A stretch of DNA of 64,000 nt, taken from positions 160,001 through 224,000 of the forward strand of contig JBJKRI010000006.1 of NCBI GenBank assembly GCA_046704725.1, given 5' to 3'. Origin of the DNA: Candidatus Woesearchaeota archaeon (GTDB lineage: Archaea > Nanobdellota > Nanobdellia > Woesearchaeales > SKIA01). The notes under the pieces were generated by a model. It was not told the DNA's origin. It was given only the letters and a program-made list of their open reading frames with translations, and made no database searches. Numbering within the stretch: position 1 is the stretch's first letter; the number at the start of each line of letters is the position of its first letter. Position numbers and translations under genes: made by a program. Positions 10,420 through 23,148 of the stretch are shown here, in pieces.

Positions 10420-11033
10420 GGATAGAGATAAACCCGCTCCGTGCTCATCACGTCAGGCGTGTCGAACTCCGTCGTGGTCGGGGTGCCGATCTTCGGGATG
10501 AAGCTGATGCGCACATGCTGTCCTTCGCCGATCTTGTTGGTCACGTTGAAGTACAGCTTAATCACGTCGCCACGGACGAGGACGCCATTCTGGTGCGAGG
10601 GCCCCTCCTGCATATATTCCACCGTGAAGTTCCCAGTCTTGCCGGACACCTGTACACAATCCACCGCAGTGGTGTTCGTGCCACAGTATGCAGAGGCGTT
10701 AGTGAAGTTCCGGTAGTTGTACGTGATCGAGTCGGTGGATGTCGAGTAGGTCAATGTCACGTCAGCAAGCTTAATGGGGTCGCTGCCCGGAGCCAGCTTC
10801 ATGACTTCGGAGAAGGCATTGATTCCCGCAGTGTCTGAACCGTTGGTGGCGGAGACCTCAAGCACCAAGGCGTTGGTGCTGATTTGGCTCGTGGCCTGCG
10901 TGCCCGTGGAGAGGGCACGTTGCTGCAGGCTTCCCGCGGTCTGTATGAGCACTCCGGCCGCAACAGCCGCGACCAGCAATAGCGATATGAAGATTATCAG
11001 CGTCCCTACACCCATCTCTGCTTTTCGGTTCAT
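10416..11033 (-). CDS. flaB: Archaellin
   Basis: Class III signal peptide RKA|EMGVGTLIIFISLLLVAAVAAGVLIQT; LAPGSDPI; several NxS/T sequons. Confidence 0.92.
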   Translation of the reverse strand: MNRKAEMGVGTLIIFISLLLVAAVAAGVLIQTAGSLQQRALSTGTQATSQISTNALVLEVSATNGSDTAGINAFSEVMKLAPGSDPIKLADVTLTYSTSTDSITYNYRNFTNASAYCGTNTTAVDCVQVSGKTGNFTVEYMQEGPSHQNGVLVRGDVIKLYFNVTNKIGEGQHVRISFIPKIGTPTTTEFDTPDVMSTERVYLYP

Positions 11034-12490: not shown

Positions 12491-14191
12491 ATGCGCAAGC
12501 CGACCGACATCCCAAACGCTCCAGGAGTATACCTGTTCTCGGACGCGGACGGCGCGATCCTCTATGTGGGCAAGGCGGCGAGCCTGAAGAAACGACTGGC
12601 GAGCTACTTCCGAAAGGACGTGGACGACAAGACGCGACGCATGCTTGAGAAAGCAGCGCAGGTCGACACGATCACCGTGCGCAACGAGGTCGAGGCGCTC
12701 CTGCTCGAGAACCGGCTCATCAACCAACACATCCCGCCGTACAACATCATGCTCCGCGAGAGCAGGCGATACGCATGGATACTCGTCACGGACGAGCGGT
12801 TCCCAAGGATCCTGACCGCGCGCAACAAGCGACGGCGTGGACACTATTACGGGCCGTACACGGACGGGACGGCGCGACGGGCGATCGTGCTCGGTCTCAA
12901 CAAGGCCTTCCGATTGCGGACCTGCCGGACACTGCCCAAACGCGTCTGCCTGCAATACCACATCGGCAACTGCACCGGACCGTGCGAGGGACACGACACG
13001 AAAGAGGAATACTCGCGAAGGGTGAGGGATGCCGAAGCGGTGCTTCAGGGAAAGACACGTGCGCTCGTCGCGCGCTTGGAGAAAGAGATGCGCGACGCAT
13101 CGGCGAAGCAACGCTTCGAGCAGGCGAAGACCGTGCGGGACACGATCGCCGCGCTCGAGCGCCTGGAGACGACGCAGGTCGTCGAGCGCGAGGAGACCCA
13201 CGACCAGGACGTCATCGGGAACGCGTCGAACGAGGAGGAGGTCTTCGTCGTCTTGTCCGTGCGGCGCGGCGTCATCGCTCGAAAGCGCGAGTACCGGCTG
13301 CCCCAGGCGCCCGACGCCCAAGAGACGTTCCTCACGGCATTGTACCGCGAGGCGATACCGCCAAAAGAGATCATCGTGGGCGGGCTGAGCGAGGAACGGG
13401 CAAGAACGCTCGCAACATACTTCTCGAAGCTCGTGGAGGGCACGGTGAACGTGACCGTACCGCAGCGAGGCGACAAGCGACGATTGCTGGAGCTGGCACA
13501 GCAGAACGCGACGCTCGCGCTGACACGGGAGGATCCGGGCCTTGCGAGCCTGCAGAAGCGACTGAACCTCGCCGCGGCGCCGGAGACGATCGACTGTTTC
13601 GACATCTCAACGCACCAAGGGGCGGAGACGGTGGCGGCGAGCGTGCGCTACCGCAACGGCAAACCCGACCCGTCGGAGTACAGGCACTTCATCATCCGCG
13701 ACGCTGTGCACGACGACTTCGCCTCCATGCGCGAAGCGGTGTCCAGAAGGTATGCTAGTTCACCGTTACCGGACCTGATCGTCATCGACGGCGGCAACGG
13801 ACAGCTGTCGGCGGCGGGAGTGGCATTGGCCTCGCAAGACCATGTGACGGTCATAGCGCTCGCGAAGAAAGAGGAGGAGATCTACGTGCCCGGACTGTCG
13901 TTTGCGCTACGCATGGACGACAAGGATCCAGGGCTCTTATTGTTGCGGCGCATCCGGGACGCGACGCACCGCTTCGTCATCGGGCACCACCGCGGGCGGC
14001 GGCGAAAAGCCATGAGCGCGAGCATGCTCGACCACGTGTCCGGCATCGGAGCGGCGAGAAAAGACAAGCTCTACAAGCGCTTCGGGACGTTCGAGCATAT
14101 CGCGGAAGCGAGCAAGAAAGAACTGCAGGATGTATTGGGGGAGAGGACCGGAACCCACTTATACAAGCGATTGCACGACGCAGCGCGATGA
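12491..14191 (+). CDS. uvrC: Excinuclease ABC subunit C
   Basis: GIY-YIG (PGVYLF...LYVGKA), EALLLE, UVR domain, CFDIS, PDLIVIDGG.GQ, C-terminal HhH. Confidence 0.96.
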   Translation: MRKPTDIPNAPGVYLFSDADGAILYVGKAASLKKRLASYFRKDVDDKTRRMLEKAAQVDTITVRNEVEALLLENRLINQHIPPYNIMLRESRRYAWILVTDERFPRILTARNKRRRGHYYGPYTDGTARRAIVLGLNKAFRLRTCRTLPKRVCLQYHIGNCTGPCEGHDTKEEYSRRVRDAEAVLQGKTRALVARLEKEMRDASAKQRFEQAKTVRDTIAALERLETTQVVEREETHDQDVIGNASNEEEVFVVLSVRRGVIARKREYRLPQAPDAQETFLTALYREAIPPKEIIVGGLSEERARTLATYFSKLVEGTVNVTVPQRGDKRRLLELAQQNATLALTREDPGLASLQKRLNLAAAPETIDCFDISTHQGAETVAASVRYRNGKPDPSEYRHFIIRDAVHDDFASMREAVSRRYASSPLPDLIVIDGGNGQLSAAGVALASQDHVTVIALAKKEEEIYVPGLSFALRMDDKDPGLLLLRRIRDATHRFVIGHHRGRRRKAMSASMLDHVSGIGAARKDKLYKRFGTFEHIAEASKKELQDVLGERTGTHLYKRLHDAAR

Positions 14192-14961
14192 GAGACTGCA
14201 TAGAACGGCTCGTCATAGAAGCCGGCGAAATCGTCATGCCCTACTTCGGGAACACCAGCCACGTCGAGAAGACGTCTCGCGCGGACGTCCTCACGGAGGC
14301 CGACCTAGCGAGCGAGCGCCACATCATCGAGAGCATCCGGCACGATTTCCCCGACGACAACATCTTCAGCGAGGAGGCGGGCGGGATCAAGGACTTCTCG
14401 GGGCGCACATGGATCGTCGACCCGATCGACGGGACGCACAACTTCTCACGGCATTTGCCTGTCTTCGCCATCATGGTCGCGCTCGTGGAGAACGAAAAAG
14501 TGATGCATTCGGCGATCAGGGTCCCAGTCACCAAGGAGACGTTCTCCGCCAGCCGCGGCGAAGGGGCGTACCGCGACGGCGAGCGCATCACGTGCTCGAC
14601 GCACGCGGCGGTGGACGATAGCGTGGGCCATCTCGACTTCCCATGGGACGATCCGACGTGGGAAGAAGCGATGATCGCCGTCCATGACAGGATCCTCCGG
14701 GAGAACGGCTCGCTCAAGGACTTGTTCTCCATCGGCGTCTCTGGAGCGCAGATAGCGTGCGGAAGGTCCGACCATTTCTTCGGCGCTGGAGCACGCATCT
14801 GGGATTACGCCCCGATCTCGCTCATCCTCGAGGAGGCAGGGTGCATCGTGACAGGGCTCGATGGCAAGCCATGGACCATCACCGAGCCGAGCCTGCTCGC
14901 CGCGAACCCCATGCTGCATGCGCAGCTCCTCCGACATTTCACGGACGCGAAGGAGCGATAG
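14188..14961 (+). CDS. suhB: Inositol monophosphatase family protein
   Basis: TEADL..E, SEE, WIVDPIDGTHNF and WDYAP motifs. Confidence 0.88.
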   Translation: MRDCIERLVIEAGEIVMPYFGNTSHVEKTSRADVLTEADLASERHIIESIRHDFPDDNIFSEEAGGIKDFSGRTWIVDPIDGTHNFSRHLPVFAIMVALVENEKVMHSAIRVPVTKETFSASRGEGAYRDGERITCSTHAAVDDSVGHLDFPWDDPTWEEAMIAVHDRILRENGSLKDLFSIGVSGAQIACGRSDHFFGAGARIWDYAPISLILEEAGCIVTGLDGKPWTITEPSLLAANPMLHAQLLRHFTDAKER

Positions 14962-14985
14962 CCGCACGACCTTTCTGACGCAGAA

Positions 14986-15285
14986 TCAGTGCACGGCAGG
15001 ACGATGCACGTCGTAGGAGCTGTCGTGGAACACGTAGATCGTCGGACCACTGCCTCGAGGATAATAGACCTGCAACGACAGTGGGCGCCCCGGCAGCAAG
15101 GACGGCTCGAGTCGTTTCCACGTCGGGTCAGCGACAAAGACACCGAGCGCCGCTGTTTTCTCATCGATCGTCGGCAACGCAGCGATGCGATTCATCTCGC
15201 CTCGAACGGTCCTTCCGATCACGCGAGGGCCATCGCGGCTTCCCAGAGCGCCAGGCATCGGCCCGGGCATCAATCGTCCTCCCAT
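14986..15285 (-). CDS. Hypothetical protein
   Basis: ORF in the gap, co-oriented with its neighbours; no motif. Confidence 0.35.
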   Translation of the reverse strand: MGGRLMPGPMPGALGSRDGPRVIGRTVRGEMNRIAALPTIDEKTAALGVFVADPTWKRLEPSLLPGRPLSLQVYYPRGSGPTIYVFHDSSYDVHRPAVH

Positions 15286-15339
15286 ACGCAGCGGAATCGC
15301 ATCTTGTTCAAAAAGGTTCTGCGCGATGCGTGGGGCGGA

Positions 15340-16710
15340 CTACGACGAGGAAAAATCCTCCGCAGTCCAACGCGCGTAGAACGCGTCCACGGCCCGTTCC
15401 ATATAGCGCAGTCTCGCCGGACTGCCGCGTTCCGGACTCATGAAACGTTGCAGGGAGTCTTTCGGAACAGCATATATCTCCGGGCGTGAGGATCCCACCA
15501 CCTTCACGCCGACCTCTCTCAAGTACTCCAGCACGTGATGCGTATTCCGACGGACGCCCTCGAATCCATGCATGTCCTTGCTCGTGAACAGCATGAACGG
15601 TTTTCCGGAGATACTGTTGAACAGGCTTCCACGGATCTCCTCACGCATCCGCCCGTATATCGATGATTCATTGTCTAGCGCGAGCGGCAGCTCTTCCTCT
15701 GTCAGGTACAGCACGCCTTGCGGTAGAGCACCCCCAGTAACGAACCCTCCGCGCAAGCGACCTTCTCGTATTCTTGTCTCAAGCGTCGGTTTGCGGAGGG
15801 CTCCCGGAAGGGACCCGAAGTGCTTCGTGGTGACAAGAAGGACTCCTGGCGAGTACCAGCCCGGCAGGCCGTCGAGCGTTGACAGGCCTCCTTCGTACGC
15901 TCCCACAGAAGTCTCTACAGGATGGAGCTTGGGCTGGTGGCCGTTCATGGAGATGTCATCGACATCGATATGCCCTTCCCATCGGTTCACTATGCTGCGC
16001 ATCACGACGGCGTGGAGCTCCCGCACGTTGCCCGGCCACGCCTCATTTTTGAGTCGCTCCACCGCCGCTTCGGTGAAGCCGAGGGTCTTCGCCTCGAAAT
16101 GGCTGCGCGTGCGTGCATGGAGATATGCCACGATCTCCGGAATATCATCCGGTCGCTCGCGCAATGGCGGGACGATGATCTCGTACTGCGCGATGCGATG
16201 GAAGAGGTCCCGACGGAATCCGTCCTCGAACGCGTCGCGCAGCGATGCGTTGGTCGCGGAGAGCACGCGGGTGACGACCTTCTGCGGCAAGGTATCTCCG
16301 ACCGGAATGATAAGGTCCTCCTCAAGGAAGCGCAGGAGCTTTGGTTGGAGCTGGGGCGGCATGTCGCCTATCTCATCGAGGAACAACGTCCCTCCTTCAG
16401 CTGCCTTCACGAAGCCCTTGCTGTCCGAGCTCGCCCCGGTGAACGCGCCCTTGCGGTGCCCGAACAGCGTCGACTCCGCAAGATCCAGAGGGAGGGCCGA
16501 GCAATTCACGGCGACGTACGGATTCATGGCGTTGGGACCGAGATGATGGAGGGCACGGGCGACGAGCTCCTTGCCGACGCCAGTCTCTCCCTGGATGAGC
16601 ACACGGATGTCGAGCTGTGCCAGGCGGCGTATCTGTTCATAGAGCGTCTGCATCGGTGCGGAAGAGCCGATAATCCGAAAATCGGTTCCGGGAATCTGCA
16701 AGGACCGCAT
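15340..16710 (-). CDS. Sigma-54-interaction (bEBP-type) AAA+ ATPase with an unrecognised C-terminal region
   Basis: GETGVGKE, VAVNCSAL, ESTLFGHRKGAFTGA, GGTLFLDEIGDM, QPKLLRFLE, SATN, FRRDLFHRI, PPLRER and WPGNVREL motifs. Confidence 0.9.
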   Translation of the reverse strand: MRSLQIPGTDFRIIGSSAPMQTLYEQIRRLAQLDIRVLIQGETGVGKELVARALHHLGPNAMNPYVAVNCSALPLDLAESTLFGHRKGAFTGASSDSKGFVKAAEGGTLFLDEIGDMPPQLQPKLLRFLEEDLIIPVGDTLPQKVVTRVLSATNASLRDAFEDGFRRDLFHRIAQYEIIVPPLRERPDDIPEIVAYLHARTRSHFEAKTLGFTEAAVERLKNEAWPGNVRELHAVVMRSIVNRWEGHIDVDDISMNGHQPKLHPVETSVGAYEGGLSTLDGLPGWYSPGVLLVTTKHFGSLPGALRKPTLETRIREGRLRGGFVTGGALPQGVLYLTEEELPLALDNESSIYGRMREEIRGSLFNSISGKPFMLFTSKDMHGFEGVRRNTHHVLEYLREVGVKVVGSSRPEIYAVPKDSLQRFMSPERGSPARLRYMERAVDAFYARWTAEDFSSS

Positions 16711-16809
16711 GATTCCACGAGTCAATAGTGACGTATTCAAAAAGCTTTTCTTCGAAAAAGCAATGGCGTCCGGCAGCGAAGACGCATAACGCCGGCTTCT
16801 CGCAGTGTC

Positions 16810-17151
16810 CTATCCTTCACGGACGACGCTCTGGCACCAACCATGCTTGCGGAAGAAATCGTAGTGGGTGATCTGCGAATAACCGTTGAAACGGTCCCTG
16901 ACCGCCGTTACTCGCACGACACAGCTTGACGAAGCGTATCCTTCCCGCAGGTCGGGGCGCAGGAACACGGAGAGCAAGACATTCCTCCCGAACGGATCGT
17001 GCATGATGTAATCGCGGAGGATGTCGAAGACCTGCCGGTCCGAGGCGTCCGACGGCAACGAATCCACGAGGGACTCGAGATGTTTCGAGAGGCTTCCCCC
17101 GCCCAGGCAGAAGCGGAAGTCGAGCGACGGTGTCGCGGGTTCCATGGCCAC
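16810..17151 (-). CDS. Hypothetical protein
   Basis: 113-aa ORF co-oriented with the AAA+ gene; TTTAAG-like box near 17169-17174 on the minus strand. Confidence 0.5.
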   Translation of the reverse strand: MAMEPATPSLDFRFCLGGGSLSKHLESLVDSLPSDASDRQVFDILRDYIMHDPFGRNVLLSVFLRPDLREGYASSSCVVRVTAVRDRFNGYSQITHYDFFRKHGWCQSVVREG

Positions 17152-17243
17152 GTCCAGGCGAGCGGATACTTAAACGTTGGGCGGACCGGAACACGACAGG
17201 CTGCTCGCACAAACATCTTAAGCACGGGGTCGCTCCCAGCCTC

Positions 17244-17385
17244 ATGCCCAGAAACACGGTCTTCTCGCTCAAAGCGCCACAAGCCGGCGGGCGGGCAGCC
17301 CGAAGCCATCAAGGAGCTGCTGGACGGCTACAAGAAGCAGCAGAAGCAGACCCTGCTCGGCGTGACCGGATCAGGCAAGACATTC
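17244..17385 (+). pseudogene. uvrB: Frameshifted 5' fragment of uvrB (left island boundary)
   Basis: 17262-17385 aligns to 21226-21351 with a 2-nt deletion and about 10 mostly synonymous substitutions; encodes the region up to LLGVTGSGKTF. Confidence 0.9.
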
Positions 17386-17467
17386 TTCTTGACGAAGTCA
17401 AGACTATCTGTCCGAAGGACGCGGGCACTTCCGTTTTTATGCTAAAATAGCTCGGATTCCAAAATTG

Positions 17468-17524
17468 AACTAACAGACGGGTTGAGCGCGTTGTGAAACA
17501 ATACGTGCTAGTCATTTGTTAATG
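17468..17524. repeat. attC-like site 1
   Basis: AACTAAC-AGACGGGTTGAGCGCG-TTGTGAAACAA-TACGTGCTAGTCATTT-GTTAATG; imperfect palindrome. Confidence 0.82.
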
Positions 17525-17617
17525 GCTTGTAAGTGATTTTTAGTGCAAGATACTCAATGAAAGCGCAAGAATTATATAATAGAAAAGGATACATTTCTGT
17601 ATCAATAGGTGATGTAA

Positions 17618-17893
17618 ATGTCTGCTATTCTAGATGCGGATCCGAAGCACTGGCCCACGCTAAACACAGTGATCATGGTAGAGCAAACAATAAACAAGCT
17701 CGACGATAGTATCGTCACTGTTCCTCAAATCAAACGCGCGTTGCCACGAAAAGTCAACCATAATACCCTCAAACTCATCCTCAAGTACTTAGAGGAAAGT
17801 AACAAGATCGCCGTAAGCATAGATGGAATTACCTGGATCCACAATCAGAATCAAAAGCTACAACGAGCGATTCAATCAGGTTTAGAGCTGTGA
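17618..17893 (+). CDS. Putative antitoxin / winged-helix protein (cassette 1)
   Basis: 91 aa, wHTH-like (QIKRALPRKVNHNTLKLILKYLEESNKI); AGGTGA SD; GTGA overlap with the toxin-like gene. Confidence 0.6.
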   Translation: MSAILDADPKHWPTLNTVIMVEQTINKLDDSIVTVPQIKRALPRKVNHNTLKLILKYLEESNKIAVSIDGITWIHNQNQKLQRAIQSGLEL

Positions 17894-18243
17894 AACGAGC
17901 ACGCATTATTTTATCTCCAGAAGCAGAAGAGGTCTACAACTATCTGAACAAAGAGGCAAGCAAGTCAAAAACAGAGCGCGCAATACTGAATGCCTTCAAC
18001 AAGAAAAAAGATCTGATCAAGAACAACATCCACTATGGTGAACCGATCGCAAAAAGCAAAATTCCTGAGGCGTACAAGAAATCGTATGGAGTGACGAATT
18101 TATTCTGGGTAGACTTGCCGGATGCGTGGAGGATGCTGTATACGCTGACAAACGATGAATCTCAGATTGAGATTATCGCATTTGTGCTGGATATCTTCGA
18201 TCACAAAGCATACGAGAAAAAAATGGGATACAAGAAGAGCTAA
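17890..18243 (+). CDS. Putative RelE/ParE-fold toxin (cassette 1)
   Basis: Basic 117 aa; IILSPEAEEVY...NLFWVDLPDAWRMLYT...VLDIFDHKAY follows the RelE-like pattern. Confidence 0.62.
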   Translation: MKRARIILSPEAEEVYNYLNKEASKSKTERAILNAFNKKKDLIKNNIHYGEPIAKSKIPEAYKKSYGVTNLFWVDLPDAWRMLYTLTNDESQIEIIAFVLDIFDHKAYEKKMGYKKS

Positions 18244-18282
18244 TCATTGCCAACCTTGCAACTTCTGAAAATCACGTATTGC

Positions 18283-18338
18283 CACTAACATACGGGTTGA
18301 GCGCGTCCTGATAGGATGCGTGCTAGTCGTTGTTATGG
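18283..18338. repeat. attC-like site 2
   Basis: CACTAAC-ATACGGGTTGAGCGCG-TCCTGATAGGA-TGCGTGCTAGTCGTT-GTTATGG; 18273-18335 is identical to 19623-19685. Confidence 0.88.
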
Positions 18339-18417
18339 GTTGCTGCCGATATGCCAGGCGCAGTCTTTGAATTTCGCGAATTGATACTATTATAAAGGAG
18401 GAACATACTGTGTTAAC

Positions 18418-18864
18418 ATGGATTTTGCGTACGAAGGAGATTACACCTACGGTCACACTCGGGGCACCACGAAAGGTTATGTTCGGCTCGGAGAAGCGGG
18501 AAAGCTTGTTGGCATTGTACGAGATGACGGAGGGCAACGAAAGTTCCTCGTCGGCCATCACACAGACAACAGAGTAGAATTCTTCAAAATTCCCGAACTG
18601 CCACTCAGCGTTCGCTCTTTAGGATACAGCGCAAAAGGAACTCCAGACTCCAGCTACGATGCGCAGTGGGGAGTCATCCCCGTATTTTCAGACGTAGCAG
18701 TTTCATGGAGCAATGTACTCTTTGATCTTCGAGATGTGGAATCAGACCGAGACCTTGATTTCTTGGATGCAGTGGACTTGGATGACATTGTTCGCGCGTC
18801 CGAACAAATAGCTGAAGTCAATCCATCCACAGATACTGCATCTTTCCGACTTAATCCACTATAA
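18418..18864 (+). CDS. Hypothetical protein (cassette 2)
   Basis: Single ORF between sites 2 and 3; TTATAAAG begins 28 nt before the ATG. Confidence 0.75.
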   Translation: MDFAYEGDYTYGHTRGTTKGYVRLGEAGKLVGIVRDDGGQRKFLVGHHTDNRVEFFKIPELPLSVRSLGYSAKGTPDSSYDAQWGVIPVFSDVAVSWSNVLFDLRDVESDRDLDFLDAVDLDDIVRASEQIAEVNPSTDTASFRLNPL

Positions 18865-18937
18865 ACCCCATTTTCAATCGTGTTCGTCATGGAGTCAAAT
18901 GAAGTGCCTGAACTCCTGAAAGCATATCTGCATTTTC

Positions 18938-18992
18938 CCATAACATACGGGTTGAGCGAGTCGCTTGCGATGCGTGCTAGTCATTGTTAATG
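18938..18992. repeat. attC-like site 3
   Basis: CCATAAC-ATACGGGTTGAGCGAG-TCGCTTGCGA-TGCGTGCTAGTCATT-GTTAATG. Confidence 0.85.
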
Positions 18993-19104
18993 GCTGTCGT
19001 ATTGAACGTGCGCGGAGGTGCGGAGAGGCCCAAGAACACAATGTTCCCATTAAATAGTAGTTAGTTACCGGTATGTTTATAAGTACTGTTTTCTTTCCTC
19101 CTGT

Positions 19105-19596
19105 ATGTCGCTATTAGAGGAGTTAGTAGCTGAATACGCCCTTGATATCGATGGTGTTATTCTAGAGGATGTGGTACAGAAGCGATACTCCACACTCATC
19201 CAGAACGGATCGATAGACGCCATGACCTCGCTACGCGAAGCAACAGGAATCAACCCTGCAGAGGAGGTGGTACAGAACGGATACTCCACACTCATCCAGA
19301 ACGGATGGATAGACGACATGACCTCGCTACGCGAAGCAACAGGAATCAACCCTGCAGAGGAGGTGGTACAGAACAGATACTCCACACTCATCCAGAACGG
19401 ATGGATAGACGACATGACCTCGCTACGCGAAGCAACAGGAATCAACCCCAAGGTCCCAGAGGATGTGATACAGAACAGATACTCCACACTCATCCAGAAC
19501 GGATGGATAGACGACATGACCTCGCTACGCGAAGCAACAGGAATCATGCCGAATGAAGAGAATGCAAGAGCGTACGTCGCGCATCTCATGGAATAA
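19105..19596 (+). CDS. Helical tandem-repeat protein (cassette 3)
   Basis: Four ~32-aa repeats EEVVQNRYSTLIQNGWIDDMTSLREATGINP; TTTATAAG begins 29 nt before the ATG. Confidence 0.8.
   Translation: MSLLEELVAEYALDIDGVILEDVVQKRYSTLIQNGSIDAMTSLREATGINPAEEVVQNGYSTLIQNGWIDDMTSLREATGINPAEEVVQNRYSTLIQNGWIDDMTSLREATGINPKVPEDVIQNRYSTLIQNGWIDDMTSLREATGIMPNEENARAYVAHLME
19165..19545 (+). repeat. Coding tandem repeat, 96-bp unit x4 (last unit offset by +6 bp)
   Basis: Near-identical units start at 19165, 19261, 19357 and ~19459. Confidence 0.92.
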
Positions 19597-19632
19597 CTGT
19601 TACCCGCAAAAACGCACGAACACACGTATTGC

Positions 19633-19688
19633 CACTAACATACGGGTTGAGCGCGTCCTGATAGGATGCGTGCTAGTCGTTGTTAGTT
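19633..19688. repeat. attC-like site 4
   Basis: Same body as site 2; ends GTTAGTT. Confidence 0.88.
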
Positions 19689-19765
19689 GGTGTTGCTCTC
19701 GATAATTCTTCAATTTTTTCGTGTGAATCAATTTGATTTATATACTGTCTTTGCGTTGAGCCACT

Positions 19766-20203
19766 ATGATTATCCGTACTGCCACAATTGATGATTGTGT
19801 TGCTTGCGAATCCCTTAGTAAGATTCCTGAATTGTTAACTCCAGAAGGTCAGCACGTTGTCAAGGAGTACTTCGAAGTGCTAGTGGATGATGATGAATTG
19901 TTTATTGTAGCGGAAGAGCAACAGCAGATTGTCGGATATGTTGTTGGCGAGCCCATGAAAGCTAATCAAGCATTCATCAGTCTGTTGGTAGTTGATCCAC
20001 ACTTTCGGCGAAGAGGTATTGCGAAACAACTACTTGATGAATTTAGAACCCGCTGCGATACTAAAGGACTGAGATACATTTCATTATTCGCTCCTTCGTT
20101 CAATGAAGCAACGCTTGAATTCTACACAAAAGCAGGTTTCACTCGCGGAGAATCCTACATCTTGTTCAGCGAAAGCAGAATGCCCGATACCGAACAAAGG
20201 TGA
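19766..20203 (+). CDS. GNAT acetyltransferase (cassette 4)
   Basis: LVVDPHFRRRGIAKQLL acetyl-CoA motif; N..TLEFYTKAGF; TTTATATA begins 29 nt before the ATG. Confidence 0.9.
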   Translation: MIIRTATIDDCVACESLSKIPELLTPEGQHVVKEYFEVLVDDDELFIVAEEQQQIVGYVVGEPMKANQAFISLLVVDPHFRRRGIAKQLLDEFRTRCDTKGLRYISLFAPSFNEATLEFYTKAGFTRGESYILFSESRMPDTEQR

Positions 20204-20237
20204 AGGTCTTTGAGAGGTTTTCTGAAAGCACAATGAC

Positions 20238-20296
20238 AACTAACATACGTTATGGCGGACGCTTTGCGCCCGCGAACCATGGATGTTAGGCCTAAC
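20238..20296. repeat. Divergent integrase-proximal recombination site (attI-like or variant attC)
   Basis: AACTAACATACG start shared with the other sites, different body, ends in the perfect palindrome GTTAGGCCTAAC (20285-20296). Confidence 0.6.
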
Positions 20297-20355
20297 CGGA
20301 GACATTCCGGTTTTATCCACAATGAACTATTGAAGTTTGTTTCGAGCGGTGGAGC

Positions 20356-21195
20356 ATGGTTACAGAGGACGTCGAGCGCCGTCTGCTTAAGCAACTGGAG
20401 GATATCTGCGCTCTCAAGGGCCTAAGCGGCCAGACTGTCCGTGCGTACTCCTCAGTCCTGGCTCAGTATTTTGCGTATCTTCGACACAAGGAGACAAAAC
20501 TCGGCCATGAAAGTGTGAAAGACTACTTGCTAACGCGTAAGGTCAACCCGAATTCGTTGCGCCTGCACCGCGCGGCGCTGCAGTTCCTCTTCACCCACAT
20601 CCTGGACAGCCCGTTCTCCTTCAATCAGATACCGATCAAGAAAAGGCCAAAACAGCTCCCCAAGGCGCTCAGCAGGCAAGCGGTCAAGACGATGATCGAC
20701 TCGACAGAGAACCCCAAGCACAAGCTCATCGTGCAACTGCTCTATTCCTGCGGCCTCCGACTGTCGGAACTGGTCAATCTCCGACGGGACGACATCGATT
20801 TCGACCGCGGACTGGTCCATGTCAGGAAGGGCAAAGGCAGCAAGGATCGCTACACCACGATCTCGCAGTCCCTGCAGTCAGCTCTCCTCCGATACTACGC
20901 CACGAACACCTTCGCCACCCCCTATATCCTCGAAGGAAGGAATGGCAAGTACTCGAAGAAATCGGTGCAGAAGGTCGTCGAGCAGGCAGGCAAGCGCGCG
21001 GCCGTTAAAGCCACGCCCCACACGCTGCGCCACTCGTTCGCCACACACCTCTTGGAGGCGGGCGTCTCTTTACGCCATATCCAGCAGCTCCTCGGCCACG
21101 CGAGCCTTGACACGACCCAGGTCTACACCCACATCGCGAACAGCGACATCGCCGCGATCCCAAATCCATTGGACCGTCTCGAACGCAACGCCTAA
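20356..21195 (+). CDS. Tyrosine recombinase, integron-integrase-like
   Basis: Catalytic set GLRLSE, KGKGSKD, HTLRHSFATHLL, LLGH, TQVY; SAM-like N-terminus (LSGQTVRAY); no IntI-specific insertion visible. Confidence 0.92.
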   Translation: MVTEDVERRLLKQLEDICALKGLSGQTVRAYSSVLAQYFAYLRHKETKLGHESVKDYLLTRKVNPNSLRLHRAALQFLFTHILDSPFSFNQIPIKKRPKQLPKALSRQAVKTMIDSTENPKHKLIVQLLYSCGLRLSELVNLRRDDIDFDRGLVHVRKGKGSKDRYTTISQSLQSALLRYYATNTFATPYILEGRNGKYSKKSVQKVVEQAGKRAAVKATPHTLRHSFATHLLEAGVSLRHIQQLLGHASLDTTQVYTHIANSDIAAIPNPLDRLERNA

Positions 21196-21219
21196 AACCC
21201 GCGCCCCATTCTCACCCAC

Positions 21220-23148
21220 ATGCCATTCTCGCTCAAAGCGCCGTACAAACCGGCGGGCGGACAGCCCGAAGCCATCAAGGAGCTGCTGGAGGGCTACAAG
21301 AAGCAGGAGAAGCAGACCCTGCTCGGGGTGACCGGCAGCGGCAAGACCTTCCTGATGGCGAACGTCATCCAGGCGCTGGGCAAGAAGACATTGGTGCTCG
21401 CGCACAACAAGACGCTCGCCGCGCAACTGTGGAGCGAACTGCGCGAACTGTTCCCCGAAAACGCCGTGGAGTACTTCGTGAGCTACTACGACTATTACCA
21501 GCCGGAATCCTACCTGCCGCAGACGGACACCTATATCGAGAAGGACAGCAGCAAGAACGACGTGATCGACGCGTTGCGCTTGCGCGCGACGGCCAACCTC
21601 TTGTCGCGCGACGACGTCATCGTCGTGGCGTCCGTGTCGTGCATCTACGGCTTGGGGGACCCGGAGGACTGGGAGGAACTGAGCCTGCATATCGAGAGAG
21701 GAGAGAGCATGAATAGGCAAGGGCTCATCAAGGGCCTTGTGGACATGCAGTACGAGCGAAACGACACGCAGCCCCAGCGCGGACAGTTCCGCGTGACAGG
21801 CGACACGGTCGAGGTCGTGCCGGGATACCAGGACGAGCACGTGCGCATCGAATTGTTCGGCGACGAGGTCGAACGCATCAGCATCAGGCACCACGTCACG
21901 GGAGAGGAGATCGAGCGCGCCGAGCGCATCGTCTTGTTCCCGGCAAAGCATTTCGTGACGACAGAGGAGAAGCAAGAGCGCGCCATCGCGGGCATCAAGG
22001 AGGAGCTGGAGGGGTACTTGCCCACGCTCGGACCGCTCGAGCACGAGCGCCTGGAGCGGCGCACGAGGTTCGACCTGGAGATGATCGAGGAACTGGGGTA
22101 CTGCAACGGCATCGAGAACTACAGCAGGCACTTCTCCGGGCGCAAGGAAGGGCAGCCGCCGCACACCCTCTTGGACTTCTTCGGGAAGGACTGGCTGCTC
22201 ATCGTGGACGAGAGCCACCAGACATTGCCGCAGGTGCACGCCATGGCGCACGGCGACCGCAGCCGCAAGGAGCCGCTCGTGGAGTACGGCTTCCGGCTGC
22301 CCAGCGCTTTCGACAACCGGCCGTTGACCTTCGAGGAGTTCGAGGGCCGCATGCCGACAACAATGTTCGTCTCCGCGACGCCGGGCGAGTACGAGACCAA
22401 GACGAGCGGCAACCTCGTGGAATGCGTCATCCGGCCGACAGGGCTCTTGGACCCCCACATCACCGTCAAGCCCACGAAAGGGCAGATAGACGACCTCATC
22501 AGCGAGGTGCACAAGACCGTCGAGGACGGGAACAAGGTCTTGGTGACCACGCTCACCAAGAAGATGTCGGAGGATCTGACGAACTACCTCGCGCGGCGCG
22601 ACATCCGGGTGCGCTACCTGCACAGCGAGATCGAGACGCTCGAACGCACGGAGCTCATCCGGCAATTGCGGGCGGACGAGATCGACTGCATCGTCGGCAT
22701 CAACCTGTTACGGGAAGGGCTCGACATCCCCGAAGTGTCGTTGGTGGCAATCCTGGATGCGGACAAGGAAGGCTTCCTGCGCAACGAACGGTCTCTCTTG
22801 CAGACCATCGGCCGGGCCTCGCGCAACAAGGACGGGCGCGTCATCATGTACGCGGACAAGACGACGGACTCGATGCGGCGCGCCATCACCATAACGCACG
22901 AGCGCCGTGCATTGCAGGAGAAGTACAACACAGAGCACGGCATCACGCCCAAGACCATCGTCAAGGCGGTGCCCGAGCAGCGCGTGGCCATGAAGGACAC
23001 CAAGCACATCCCAGACGCTGATGTGGAGAAGACGATCGAATCCTTGCGCGAGGAGATGGCCGCGGCGGCCGAGCAGTTGAACTTCGAGCTCGCCATCGAG
23101 ATACGCGACCGCATCAAGGAACTGGAGAAACGGCTGGAGAAGCGATAG
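21220..23148 (+). CDS. uvrB: Excinuclease ABC subunit B
   Basis: GVTGSGKT, YFVSYYDYYQPESY, DESH, SATPG, GINLLREGLD; C-terminal UVR domain. Confidence 0.98.
   Translation: MPFSLKAPYKPAGGQPEAIKELLEGYKKQEKQTLLGVTGSGKTFLMANVIQALGKKTLVLAHNKTLAAQLWSELRELFPENAVEYFVSYYDYYQPESYLPQTDTYIEKDSSKNDVIDALRLRATANLLSRDDVIVVASVSCIYGLGDPEDWEELSLHIERGESMNRQGLIKGLVDMQYERNDTQPQRGQFRVTGDTVEVVPGYQDEHVRIELFGDEVERISIRHHVTGEEIERAERIVLFPAKHFVTTEEKQERAIAGIKEELEGYLPTLGPLEHERLERRTRFDLEMIEELGYCNGIENYSRHFSGRKEGQPPHTLLDFFGKDWLLIVDESHQTLPQVHAMAHGDRSRKEPLVEYGFRLPSAFDNRPLTFEEFEGRMPTTMFVSATPGEYETKTSGNLVECVIRPTGLLDPHITVKPTKGQIDDLISEVHKTVEDGNKVLVTTLTKKMSEDLTNYLARRDIRVRYLHSEIETLERTELIRQLRADEIDCIVGINLLREGLDIPEVSLVAILDADKEGFLRNERSLLQTIGRASRNKDGRVIMYADKTTDSMRRAITITHERRALQEKYNTEHGITPKTIVKAVPEQRVAMKDTKHIPDADVEKTIESLREEMAAAAEQLNFELAIEIRDRIKELEKRLEKR

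Follow-up and report, generated by a model that had tools for sequence, protein, structure and literature searches.

Why does an archaeon carry the motor of a bacterial transcription activator, complete with the loop by which such activators take hold of sigma-54? The question is raised by a single gene in a 64,000-nucleotide stretch of DNA (the whole of which is called here the window) from the genome of a Candidatus Woesearchaeota archaeon, contig JBJKRI010000006.1, positions 160,001 to 224,000. In bacteria, the rings formed by the bacterial enhancer-binding proteins (bEBPs) engage region I of sigma-54 through their L1 GAFTGA loops, and this activation reportedly proceeds by limited unfolding, as a preprint of 2025 is said to describe. 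Most bEBPs end in a helix-turn-helix (HTH) domain of the Fis type (HTH_8), a feature that is usual but not universal. Sigma-54 itself needs the bacterial core polymerase, which archaea lack.

On the best reading of its sequence, the protein encoded by this gene (the window protein) appears to be a divergent, high-GC member of a family that has been found so far only in archaea of the Woesearchaeota type (DPANN). With regard to the function of this family, we lean, at slightly better than even confidence, to the view that it is maintained by selection and consists of sensor-less, bEBP-type ring ATPases that grip some protein other than sigma-54 and are aimed by a tail peculiar to their lineage. 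The motor and its loop are conserved where no sigma-54 can be detected; a ring ATPase that acts on another protein is the most economical reading.

A bEBP-type motor without a sensor

The gene lies on the minus strand at 15340..16710; its open reading frame (ORF) and translation run from an ATG at 16710 to a stop codon at 15340-15342 and give a protein of 456 amino acids. The ORF list begins the same gene at a TTG (15340..16740 (-), 466 amino acids), and all the residue numbers given here for the window protein are counted from this TTG. The N-terminal half is occupied by the Sigma54_activat AAA+ core (PF00158; residues 23-188; 16177..16674 (-); Pfam E 6.4e-59), followed by the AAA+ lid AAA_lid_14 (PF25601; residues 194-268; 15937..16161 (-); E 1.8e-14), which contains the sensor II motif GNVREL with R240. 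The Walker A motif GETGVGKE (residues 51-58; 16567..16590 (-)), the L1 loop GAFTGA (residues 98-103; 16432..16449 (-)), the Walker B pair D122-E123 (16372..16377 (-)), the arginines R176 and R182 and the sensor II R240 can all be read from the sequence. Pfam recognizes no REC, GAF, PAS or HTH_8 domain in the protein, and residues 270-466 are without any Pfam match. Hence the first-pass annotation, which had described a complete bEBP AAA+ domain near the N-terminus with no receiver, GAF or PAS domain, an intact GAFTGA loop and no Fis-type HTH behind it, was right on each of these points. The NCBIfam models for NorR, NifA, NtrC, RtcR and PspF match the core only, and all of them score far below their full-length cut-offs; the PspF model (TIGR02974), for example, matches residues 23-272 with an E of 5.7e-64 and reaches 216 bits against a cut-off of 443.

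In its layout the window protein resembles the sensor-less bEBPs PspF and HrpR/HrpS: the core lies near the N-terminus with no sensor domain before it, carries Walker A and B, GAFTGA, the arginines and sensor II, and is followed by a C-terminal domain. It differs from them in that this last domain is not a Fis-type HTH_8 but a tandem-repeat tail of ~170 amino acids, found only in the archaeal family, and in that its host has neither a detectable sigma-54 nor an excess of -24/-12 promoter sequences. The bacterial bEBPs that match it, NtrC/AtoC- and GAF/PAS-type proteins of Acidobacteria and Myxococcota, are 43-53% identical to its AAA+ half; these proteins, however, carry REC, GAF or PAS domains together with HTH_8, match 49-71% of the query and are devoid of the tail.

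To judge by its sequence, this is a real and intact gene, equipped to be expressed in its host. A BRE/TATA element (transcription factor B recognition element and TATA box) of the host type, GAAAAGCTTTTTGAATA, is located at 16734..16750 (-); it ends 24 nt before the ATG, and the TTG (16738-16740) lies inside it. Because the TTG falls within the TATA element, the ATG at 16710 is most likely the real start. The spacing of the promoter fits this start, in agreement with the database protein P0002 (456 amino acids, beginning at the ATG at 16710) and with the coordinates of the first-pass annotation. Since the TATA element ends so close to the ATG, the transcript would be leaderless or near-leaderless. 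A survey of 429 likely genes of the genome (ORFs of 200 amino acids or more whose third-position GC content (GC3) is 0.78 or higher and whose first Met is among the first 40 residues) revealed that AT-rich octamers peak sharply at start positions -32..-29 from the ATG, a bin that holds 386 octamer starts. The octamers of the ATPase gene begin at -33..-31, that is, at the genome's usual distance, and the archaellin gene at 11033 has a similar element, GAAAAGCTTTATATA.

An archaeal family with a tail of its own

When the whole protein was compared with a collection of 5.8 billion clusters, only the protein itself and then bacterial bEBPs were recovered, with no close relative. With the tail alone as query, a search of 1.84 billion representatives recovered nothing but the window protein itself and P0124 (E 2.2e-5), a JGI protein of 620 amino acids with the same layout, to which the full-length window protein is 25% identical over 423 amino acids by BLASTP (E 2e-26). 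P0124 has a dead Walker A (GEDGTERD), has lost the L1 loop region by deletion and bears two copies of the tail; its tail matched only itself in the 5.8-billion-cluster collection, and a search of metagenome contigs with P0124 gave no match. A two-row hidden Markov model (HMM) of the tail, A1, found a protein of 488 amino acids in G125, which belongs to the same order (E 9.1e-8), with 38% identity over 373 amino acids and a match that extends into the tail; the BLASTP match of the window protein to P0127 extends to residue 386. The G125 protein, used in its turn as a query, brought out about 25 proteins of 444-531 amino acids that cover 85-97% of it. None of these has a REC or HTH_8 domain, and three of them are named by NCBI [quoted passage not shown].

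An alignment of 24 members of the family (A3) indicates how strictly the motor has been preserved. There is no variation in Walker A (G51, G54, G56, K57, E58), Walker B (D122, E123), N79, T163, the two arginines (R176, R182), the sensor II region (G237, N238, R240) or the loop residues G98, G102 and A103; F100 and T101 are kept by at least 90% of the members. The L1 loop reads GAFTGA in 16 of the 24, GSFTGA in six, GSYTGA in one and GAFSGA in one. Conservation in the tail involves W295, G299, V300, T347, F374, N375, P381, F382, Y455 and F458, the last two in at least 90% of members. The tail of the window protein is homologous to that of the family by three lines of evidence: the A1 HMM, BLASTP and the motif residues of A3. 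With P0128, P0145, P0147 and their relatives in Woesearchaeota, it shares the AAA+ core with the same catalytic and loop residues and a tail bearing WYxxGV, YLTP, FN..PF and a closing Y..F..W.P; it differs from them in being just 29-35% identical overall, in lacking their N-terminal NYxEPxYRI motif, in its 60% GC genome and in its long branch.

With A3 as query, bEBP-type AAA+ proteins occur in 22 of the 401 genomes of the order at E <= 1e-20, and the matches reach the tail in the window's own genome (G000), G125, G333 and, in part, G400. The tail HMM A2 matched two of 401 genomes of the phylum, G000 and G125; searches of genome contigs with A2 and A5 gave no match, and an A5 search of metagenome contigs gave one locus, L056. 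The family is thus not a singleton, since it comprises about 25 database proteins and three other genomes of the order with the tail; with its members spread over other genomes and their ATPase residues intact, the decaying singleton transfer that the first-pass annotation had entertained does not describe it. The family genes of G333 and G400 adjoin NMD3 and Trm1 genes, which fits an archaeal host.

Many of the other A3 matches are short AAA+-HTH_8 proteins, and one is a GAF-AAA+ protein. About ten PspF-like AAA+-HTH_8 proteins of 331-421 amino acids were also noted in Woesearchaeales (L026-L046), most of them with GAFTGA and in metagenome-assembled genomes (MAGs) that have no detectable sigma-54; their contigs may be archaeal or bacterial. 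An apparent relative in G005 (L006, G005:C3) was rejected: it is a REC-AAA-HTH protein of the NtrC type whose gene neighbors encode a histidine kinase with a PAS domain and part of a chemoreceptor; the MAG is 5% contaminated, and the contig is probably bacterial.

The tail, of ~170 amino acids, consists of two modules of ~60 amino acids and a closing helix. Repeat 1 (residues 294-357; 15670..15861 (-)) bears the motifs WYxxGV ... YLT, and repeat 2 (residues 380-437; 15430..15603 (-)) opens with the conserved PF. The C-terminal helix (15343..15429 (-)), predicted in both low-confidence models, carries the family's closing Y..F motif with W459 next to it. An hhalign comparison matches repeat 1 to repeat 2 with a probability of 89.8% and an E of 1.8e-6 over 51 columns; the tail is therefore a tandem duplication. 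Repeat 1 is common to P0124, to the G125 and G333 proteins and to about 25 database proteins. The tails are mildly basic, with a median pI of 9.0 and a positive net charge in 17 of 24.

Each module has the predicted pattern strand-helix-helix-strand-strand, and in this respect the two tandem modules of the window protein are like the tandem winged helices of the ScpB type and the winged HTHs of the Xis/BldC/MerR type. The sole PDB hit of a 13-row tail profile was the tandem winged-helix protein ScpB of Pyrococcus (6juv), at an E of 0.23, below significance. The Foldseek comparison of the C-terminal region that the first-pass annotation had proposed, run with a low-confidence model, again yielded ScpB 6juv, at rank 4, and again below significance (E 0.062). 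For repeat 1, the list produced by VIA-align was headed by BldC, Xis and CvkR, all sub-threshold. The models concerned have predicted local distance difference test (pLDDT) values of 34.7 for the full-length fold without an alignment and 54.8 for the tail fold with a 3-row alignment. A search of the ESM Atlas with the tail gave scores of 0.77-0.78, below the usable range. A Pfam scan of the tail alone at E up to 10 found no family, and Pfam on the 24 family members found no tail family and no HTH_8 even at E up to 5.

Close relatives of the family core, P0153 and P0154, bear HTH_17 repeats in the place of the tail, and P0161 bears an HTH_3, so that in near kin this position is used for DNA-binding domains. 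The more specific idea that the tail is itself an excisionase-like HTH_17 domain was rejected, given the absence of Pfam matches in the tails and in the 24 members and hhalign probabilities of 0.3% and 1.8% against the three HTH_17 repeats of P0153. We regard a winged-helix targeting domain as a weak lead for the tail and not as a result.

Sigma-54 and other possible clients

The first-pass annotation had held sigma-54 to be absent from archaea, and the host genome, which is 99.69% complete, agrees: the three Pfam models of sigma-54 (PF04552, PF04963 and PF00309) have no match in it, two of them at E up to 1, whereas bacterial control genomes do match. Sigma-54 is likewise not detectable in any of the four tail-bearing genomes, G000, G125, G333 and G400. 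The promoter sequence TGGCAC-N5-TTGC occurs twice in the host genome against 1, 2, 1, 4 and 2 times in five simulated genomes, and the intermediate -24/-12 forms TGGCA-N6-TTGC and GGCAC-N5-TTGC similarly show no excess over the simulated genomes. The two loosest forms reach ~1.3 times the simulated counts (54 vs 38-45 and 276 vs 183-222).

These ATPases could nonetheless work with a divergent or reduced sigma-54-like factor that escapes detection, for example a mini sigma-54. Sigma54_DBD (PF04552) was found in one of 20 other carrier genomes tested (G005 was left out), namely G302, and in none of the remaining 19. The G302 protein (L047:1048-1995, G302:C48) has 315 amino acids and Sigma54_DBD as its only domain (E 6.3e-17), with an RpoN-box-like SRRVIAKYRDILGIP; region I and the core-binding domain are missing. 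Its MAG belongs to the Woesearchaeales and has two bEBP-type genes, and the Sigma54_DBD gene adjoins a gene for a prolyl-tRNA synthetase (ProRS) with a ProRS-C_1 domain, a type that we take to be typical of archaea and eukaryotes. This protein may be a mini sigma-54 or a contamination. Together with a GAFTGA loop conserved as in the true sigma-54 activators, it speaks for such a hidden partner. Set against this are the lack of any match to the three Pfam models in G000, the failure of the G302 protein as a query to find anything at E up to 1 in G000, G125, G333, G400 and G180, the absence of a -24/-12 promoter excess and the lack of a bacterial core polymerase in archaea, and we consider the explanation quite unlikely.

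A different client is offered by the bacterial-type sigma-70-family proteins that many Woesearchaeota encode, for which the ATPase might act as an ATP-driven switch. Passages of Castelle et al. 2021 (PMC8204110) describe the sigma-70 genes of Woesearchaeota as having no anti-sigma factor or known control. Sigma70_r2 is found in 146 of the 401 genomes of the order (a total that includes seven unpublished genomes, G187, G117, G248, G371, G137, G337 and G126, none of them a carrier) and in all four tail-bearing genomes, the window's own having two matches. The four out of four is, however, a post-hoc count on related genomes; just 11 of the 22 genomes with any bEBP-type ATPase have such a protein, and in the host the sigma-70 gene lies on contig C5 and the ATPase gene on C6, so that the two are not neighbors. 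Moreover, we know of no bEBP that acts on a sigma-70-family protein. We judge this particular pairing to be improbable.

The intact sigma-54 contact loop, and the fact that DPANN archaea live attached to hosts, might also suggest an effector that is delivered to a bacterial partner and drives the sigma-54 promoters of that partner. The first-pass annotation had offered an action on a bacterial partner's transcription as the alternative to a repurposed remodeller. The remodeller remains the best reading, and the partner idea has no support. The N-terminus of the window protein shows neither a signal peptide nor a membrane segment, nothing links the protein to export, and Pfam analysis of the window revealed no secretion-related gene among its neighbors. 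In addition, an activator that depends on specific DNA sites would have to find such sites in the genome of the partner, and the known partners of cultivated DPANN are archaea according to Castelle et al. 2021 (PMC8204110). Delivery to a bacterium thus seems very unlikely.

For the preferred reading, a non-sigma-54 client gripped by a selected, tail-directed ATPase, a working model can be outlined. The family protein would form the usual ring; this ring would burn ATP, take hold of a peptide with its L1 loops and remodel it or unfold it in part. The peptide would belong not to sigma-54 but to another protein, most plausibly a factor connected with transcription. Recruitment of the ATPase to DNA or to a partner would fall to the tail, which is mildly basic and may be a winged helix. 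Because there is no sensor domain, control would probably be exerted by the level of expression or by a regulator acting in trans, as in the case of PspF and PspA. A bolder version of the model makes the Woesearchaeota bEBP motor an ATP-driven switch of gene expression, in which a DNA-tethered ring uses its GAFTGA loops to partly unfold an archaeal initiation factor or the orphan sigma-70-like proteins. In this form we regard it as a speculative proposal, with the chances clearly against it.

Genomic setting and significance

The host genome, of 1.18 Mb, is in eight contigs, all of 60.2-61.8% GC, with 0.6% contamination. The ATPase gene is mid-contig, at 175-177 kb of a contig of 251,481 bases (C6, of which the window is C6:160001-224000). 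The genes upstream of it include two for archaellins (PF01917, E 3e-27 and 3e-28), and in two genomes of the same genus, G004 and G003, the order is archaellins-uvrC, about 480 nt, and then uvrB(-uvrA), so that both flanks of the ATPase gene are syntenic with these congeners. The first-pass annotation's description of the flanking genes as archaeal is thereby supported, and the chimeric contig about which it had warned is contradicted by the mid-contig position, the uniform GC and the synteny on both sides. An artefact of assembly or binning could still be suspected, since the AAA+ core is 43-53% identical to proteins of Acidobacteria and Myxococcota and since the apparent relative in G005 is probably bacterial, in a MAG with 5% contamination. 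Nevertheless, besides the contig evidence and the low contamination of the genome, the gene has an archaeal promoter and its tail occurs only in an archaeal family, and we consider a misplaced bacterial gene extremely unlikely.

Between uvrC and uvrB the window contains a 7-kb insert (14188-21362) that is not present in G003 and G004. Its order is an inositol monophosphatase gene, ORF99, the ATPase gene, ORF113, a duplicate of the uvrB 5' end, attC-like sites, cassettes and a tyrosine recombinase gene (20356-21195). The uvrB duplicate is of 118 nt (17279-17396 vs 21245-21362, 88% identical), and the recombinase element seems to have inserted itself at the uvrB 5' end. The four attC-like sites of the insert (17471, 18286, 18941 and 19636; span 17471-19656) are all inside the cassette array, which has five low-GC ORFs of 276-492 nt; because no such site is near the ATPase gene, it is not a cassette of this array. 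The GC3 of the gene is 0.72, and that of the adjacent low-GC cassettes is 0.39-0.59. ORF99 (14986-15285) and ORF113 (16810-17145) flank the ATPase gene, each with a TATA-like box at ~-29; they belong to no Pfam family and have no match in G125, G333, G400, G001 and G004. Two further features of the insert may be recorded here. One cassette ORF (19105-19596), for which Pfam offers no credible family, consists of four tandem units of 96-102 nt whose identity to the reference copy is 91-96%. At 14188-14191 the stop codon of uvrC and the first codon of the inositol monophosphatase gene overlap; in G003 and G004 the latter gene is absent at this position.

Several observations weigh against our preferred reading, and some of them concern the place of the window protein within the family. 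A tree of 65 rows was built from 24 family members, four near relatives, 12 further hits in Woesearchaeales and 25 bacterial proteins; the bacterial set is a subsample of 60 sequences drawn at random from the 203 hits listed. Without constraint, the window protein's AAA+ core stands on a long branch (1.29) among the bacterial rows (Shimodaira-Hasegawa-like approximate likelihood ratio test (SH-aLRT) values 85 and 93, unstarred), while 29 family rows group together (SH-aLRT 81). The best core identity is also to a bacterial protein (53%), above the identity to the family. The family's N-terminal NYxEPxYRI motif is not recognizable in the window protein, which reads MRSLQIPGTDFRIIG, and only the final hydrophobic position aligns. 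No counterpart was found in four genomes of the same genus searched (91-99% complete), and this, together with the location of the gene in an insert that G003 and G004 lack, implies that it is dispensable in close relatives. Its GC3 is below that of uvrA/uvrB (0.88-0.90). No neighboring gene is common to the five family loci examined (those of the window, G125, G333, G400 and L056). Finally, Pfam and PDB sequence searches of the tail gave nothing significant, and the evidence for its fold is all below significance and derives from models of pLDDT 35 and 55.

The placement of the core is less clear than the homology of the tail. An approximately unbiased (AU) test does not reject a single clade of the family and the window protein (p 0.555), and the tree constrained to this clade was 3.4 log units better. 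The host has a GC content of 60%, compared with 32-43% at the other family loci, a compositional shift that may underlie both the length of the branch and the attraction of the core to high-GC bacteria.

The gene could also be a neutral passenger, acquired horizontally, without function in its host and not yet decayed. This would account for its absence from the four congeners, for its position in a lineage-specific insert beside an integrase and a cassette array, and for a long branch with no close relative in 5.8 billion clusters. On the other hand, an open frame of 456 codons, all its catalytic motifs intact, a host-type promoter, a composition near that of the host and unlike that of the cassettes, the lack of a flanking attC-like site and the retention of the same architecture in distant genomes of the order make a useless relic a poor bet. 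The first-pass annotation had left a choice between selection and recent transfer. The conserved ATPase and loop, the host-type promoter and the difference in GC3 from the cassettes tip this towards selection, and recent transfer is not favored.

No paper on this family came up in literature searches that paired DPANN or Woesearchaeota with sigma-54, NtrC or enhancer-binding terms, and a search for PF00158 in archaea gave none on archaeal carriers, as judged by title and abstract. From the portions of it that bear on archaea, a census of 2025 (PMC12316311) reports no sigma-54-specific EBP in 380 archaeal proteomes, which served as its negative control. Galperin et al. 2018 (PMC5847659), in a passage on the subject, mention NtrC-type regulators in three unfinished archaeal genomes, and the family is not mentioned in the passages of Castelle et al. 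2021 (PMC8204110) that deal with the Woesearchaeota sigma-70 genes. The automatically assigned label "sigma-54-dependent Fis family transcriptional regulator" is a misnomer for this family, which has no Fis HTH and, in the four tail-bearing genomes, no detectable sigma-54.

GAFTGA has been treated as a signature of sigma-54 dependence, and here it is conserved in an archaeal family without a detectable sigma-54. So there must be either a second natural client for the loop or an unrecognized sigma-54-like partner hidden in these archaea. The question is directly testable, since the compact, sensor-less protein lends itself to expression and to trapping on its target by means of ADP-aluminum fluoride (ADP-AlFx). 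If the idea of a gene-expression switch were true, it would give archaeal transcription its first activation step of the ATP-dependent, enhancer type. Whichever of the two answers holds, it bears on how bEBPs choose their substrates and on the use that DPANN archaea make of their many bacterial-type regulators.

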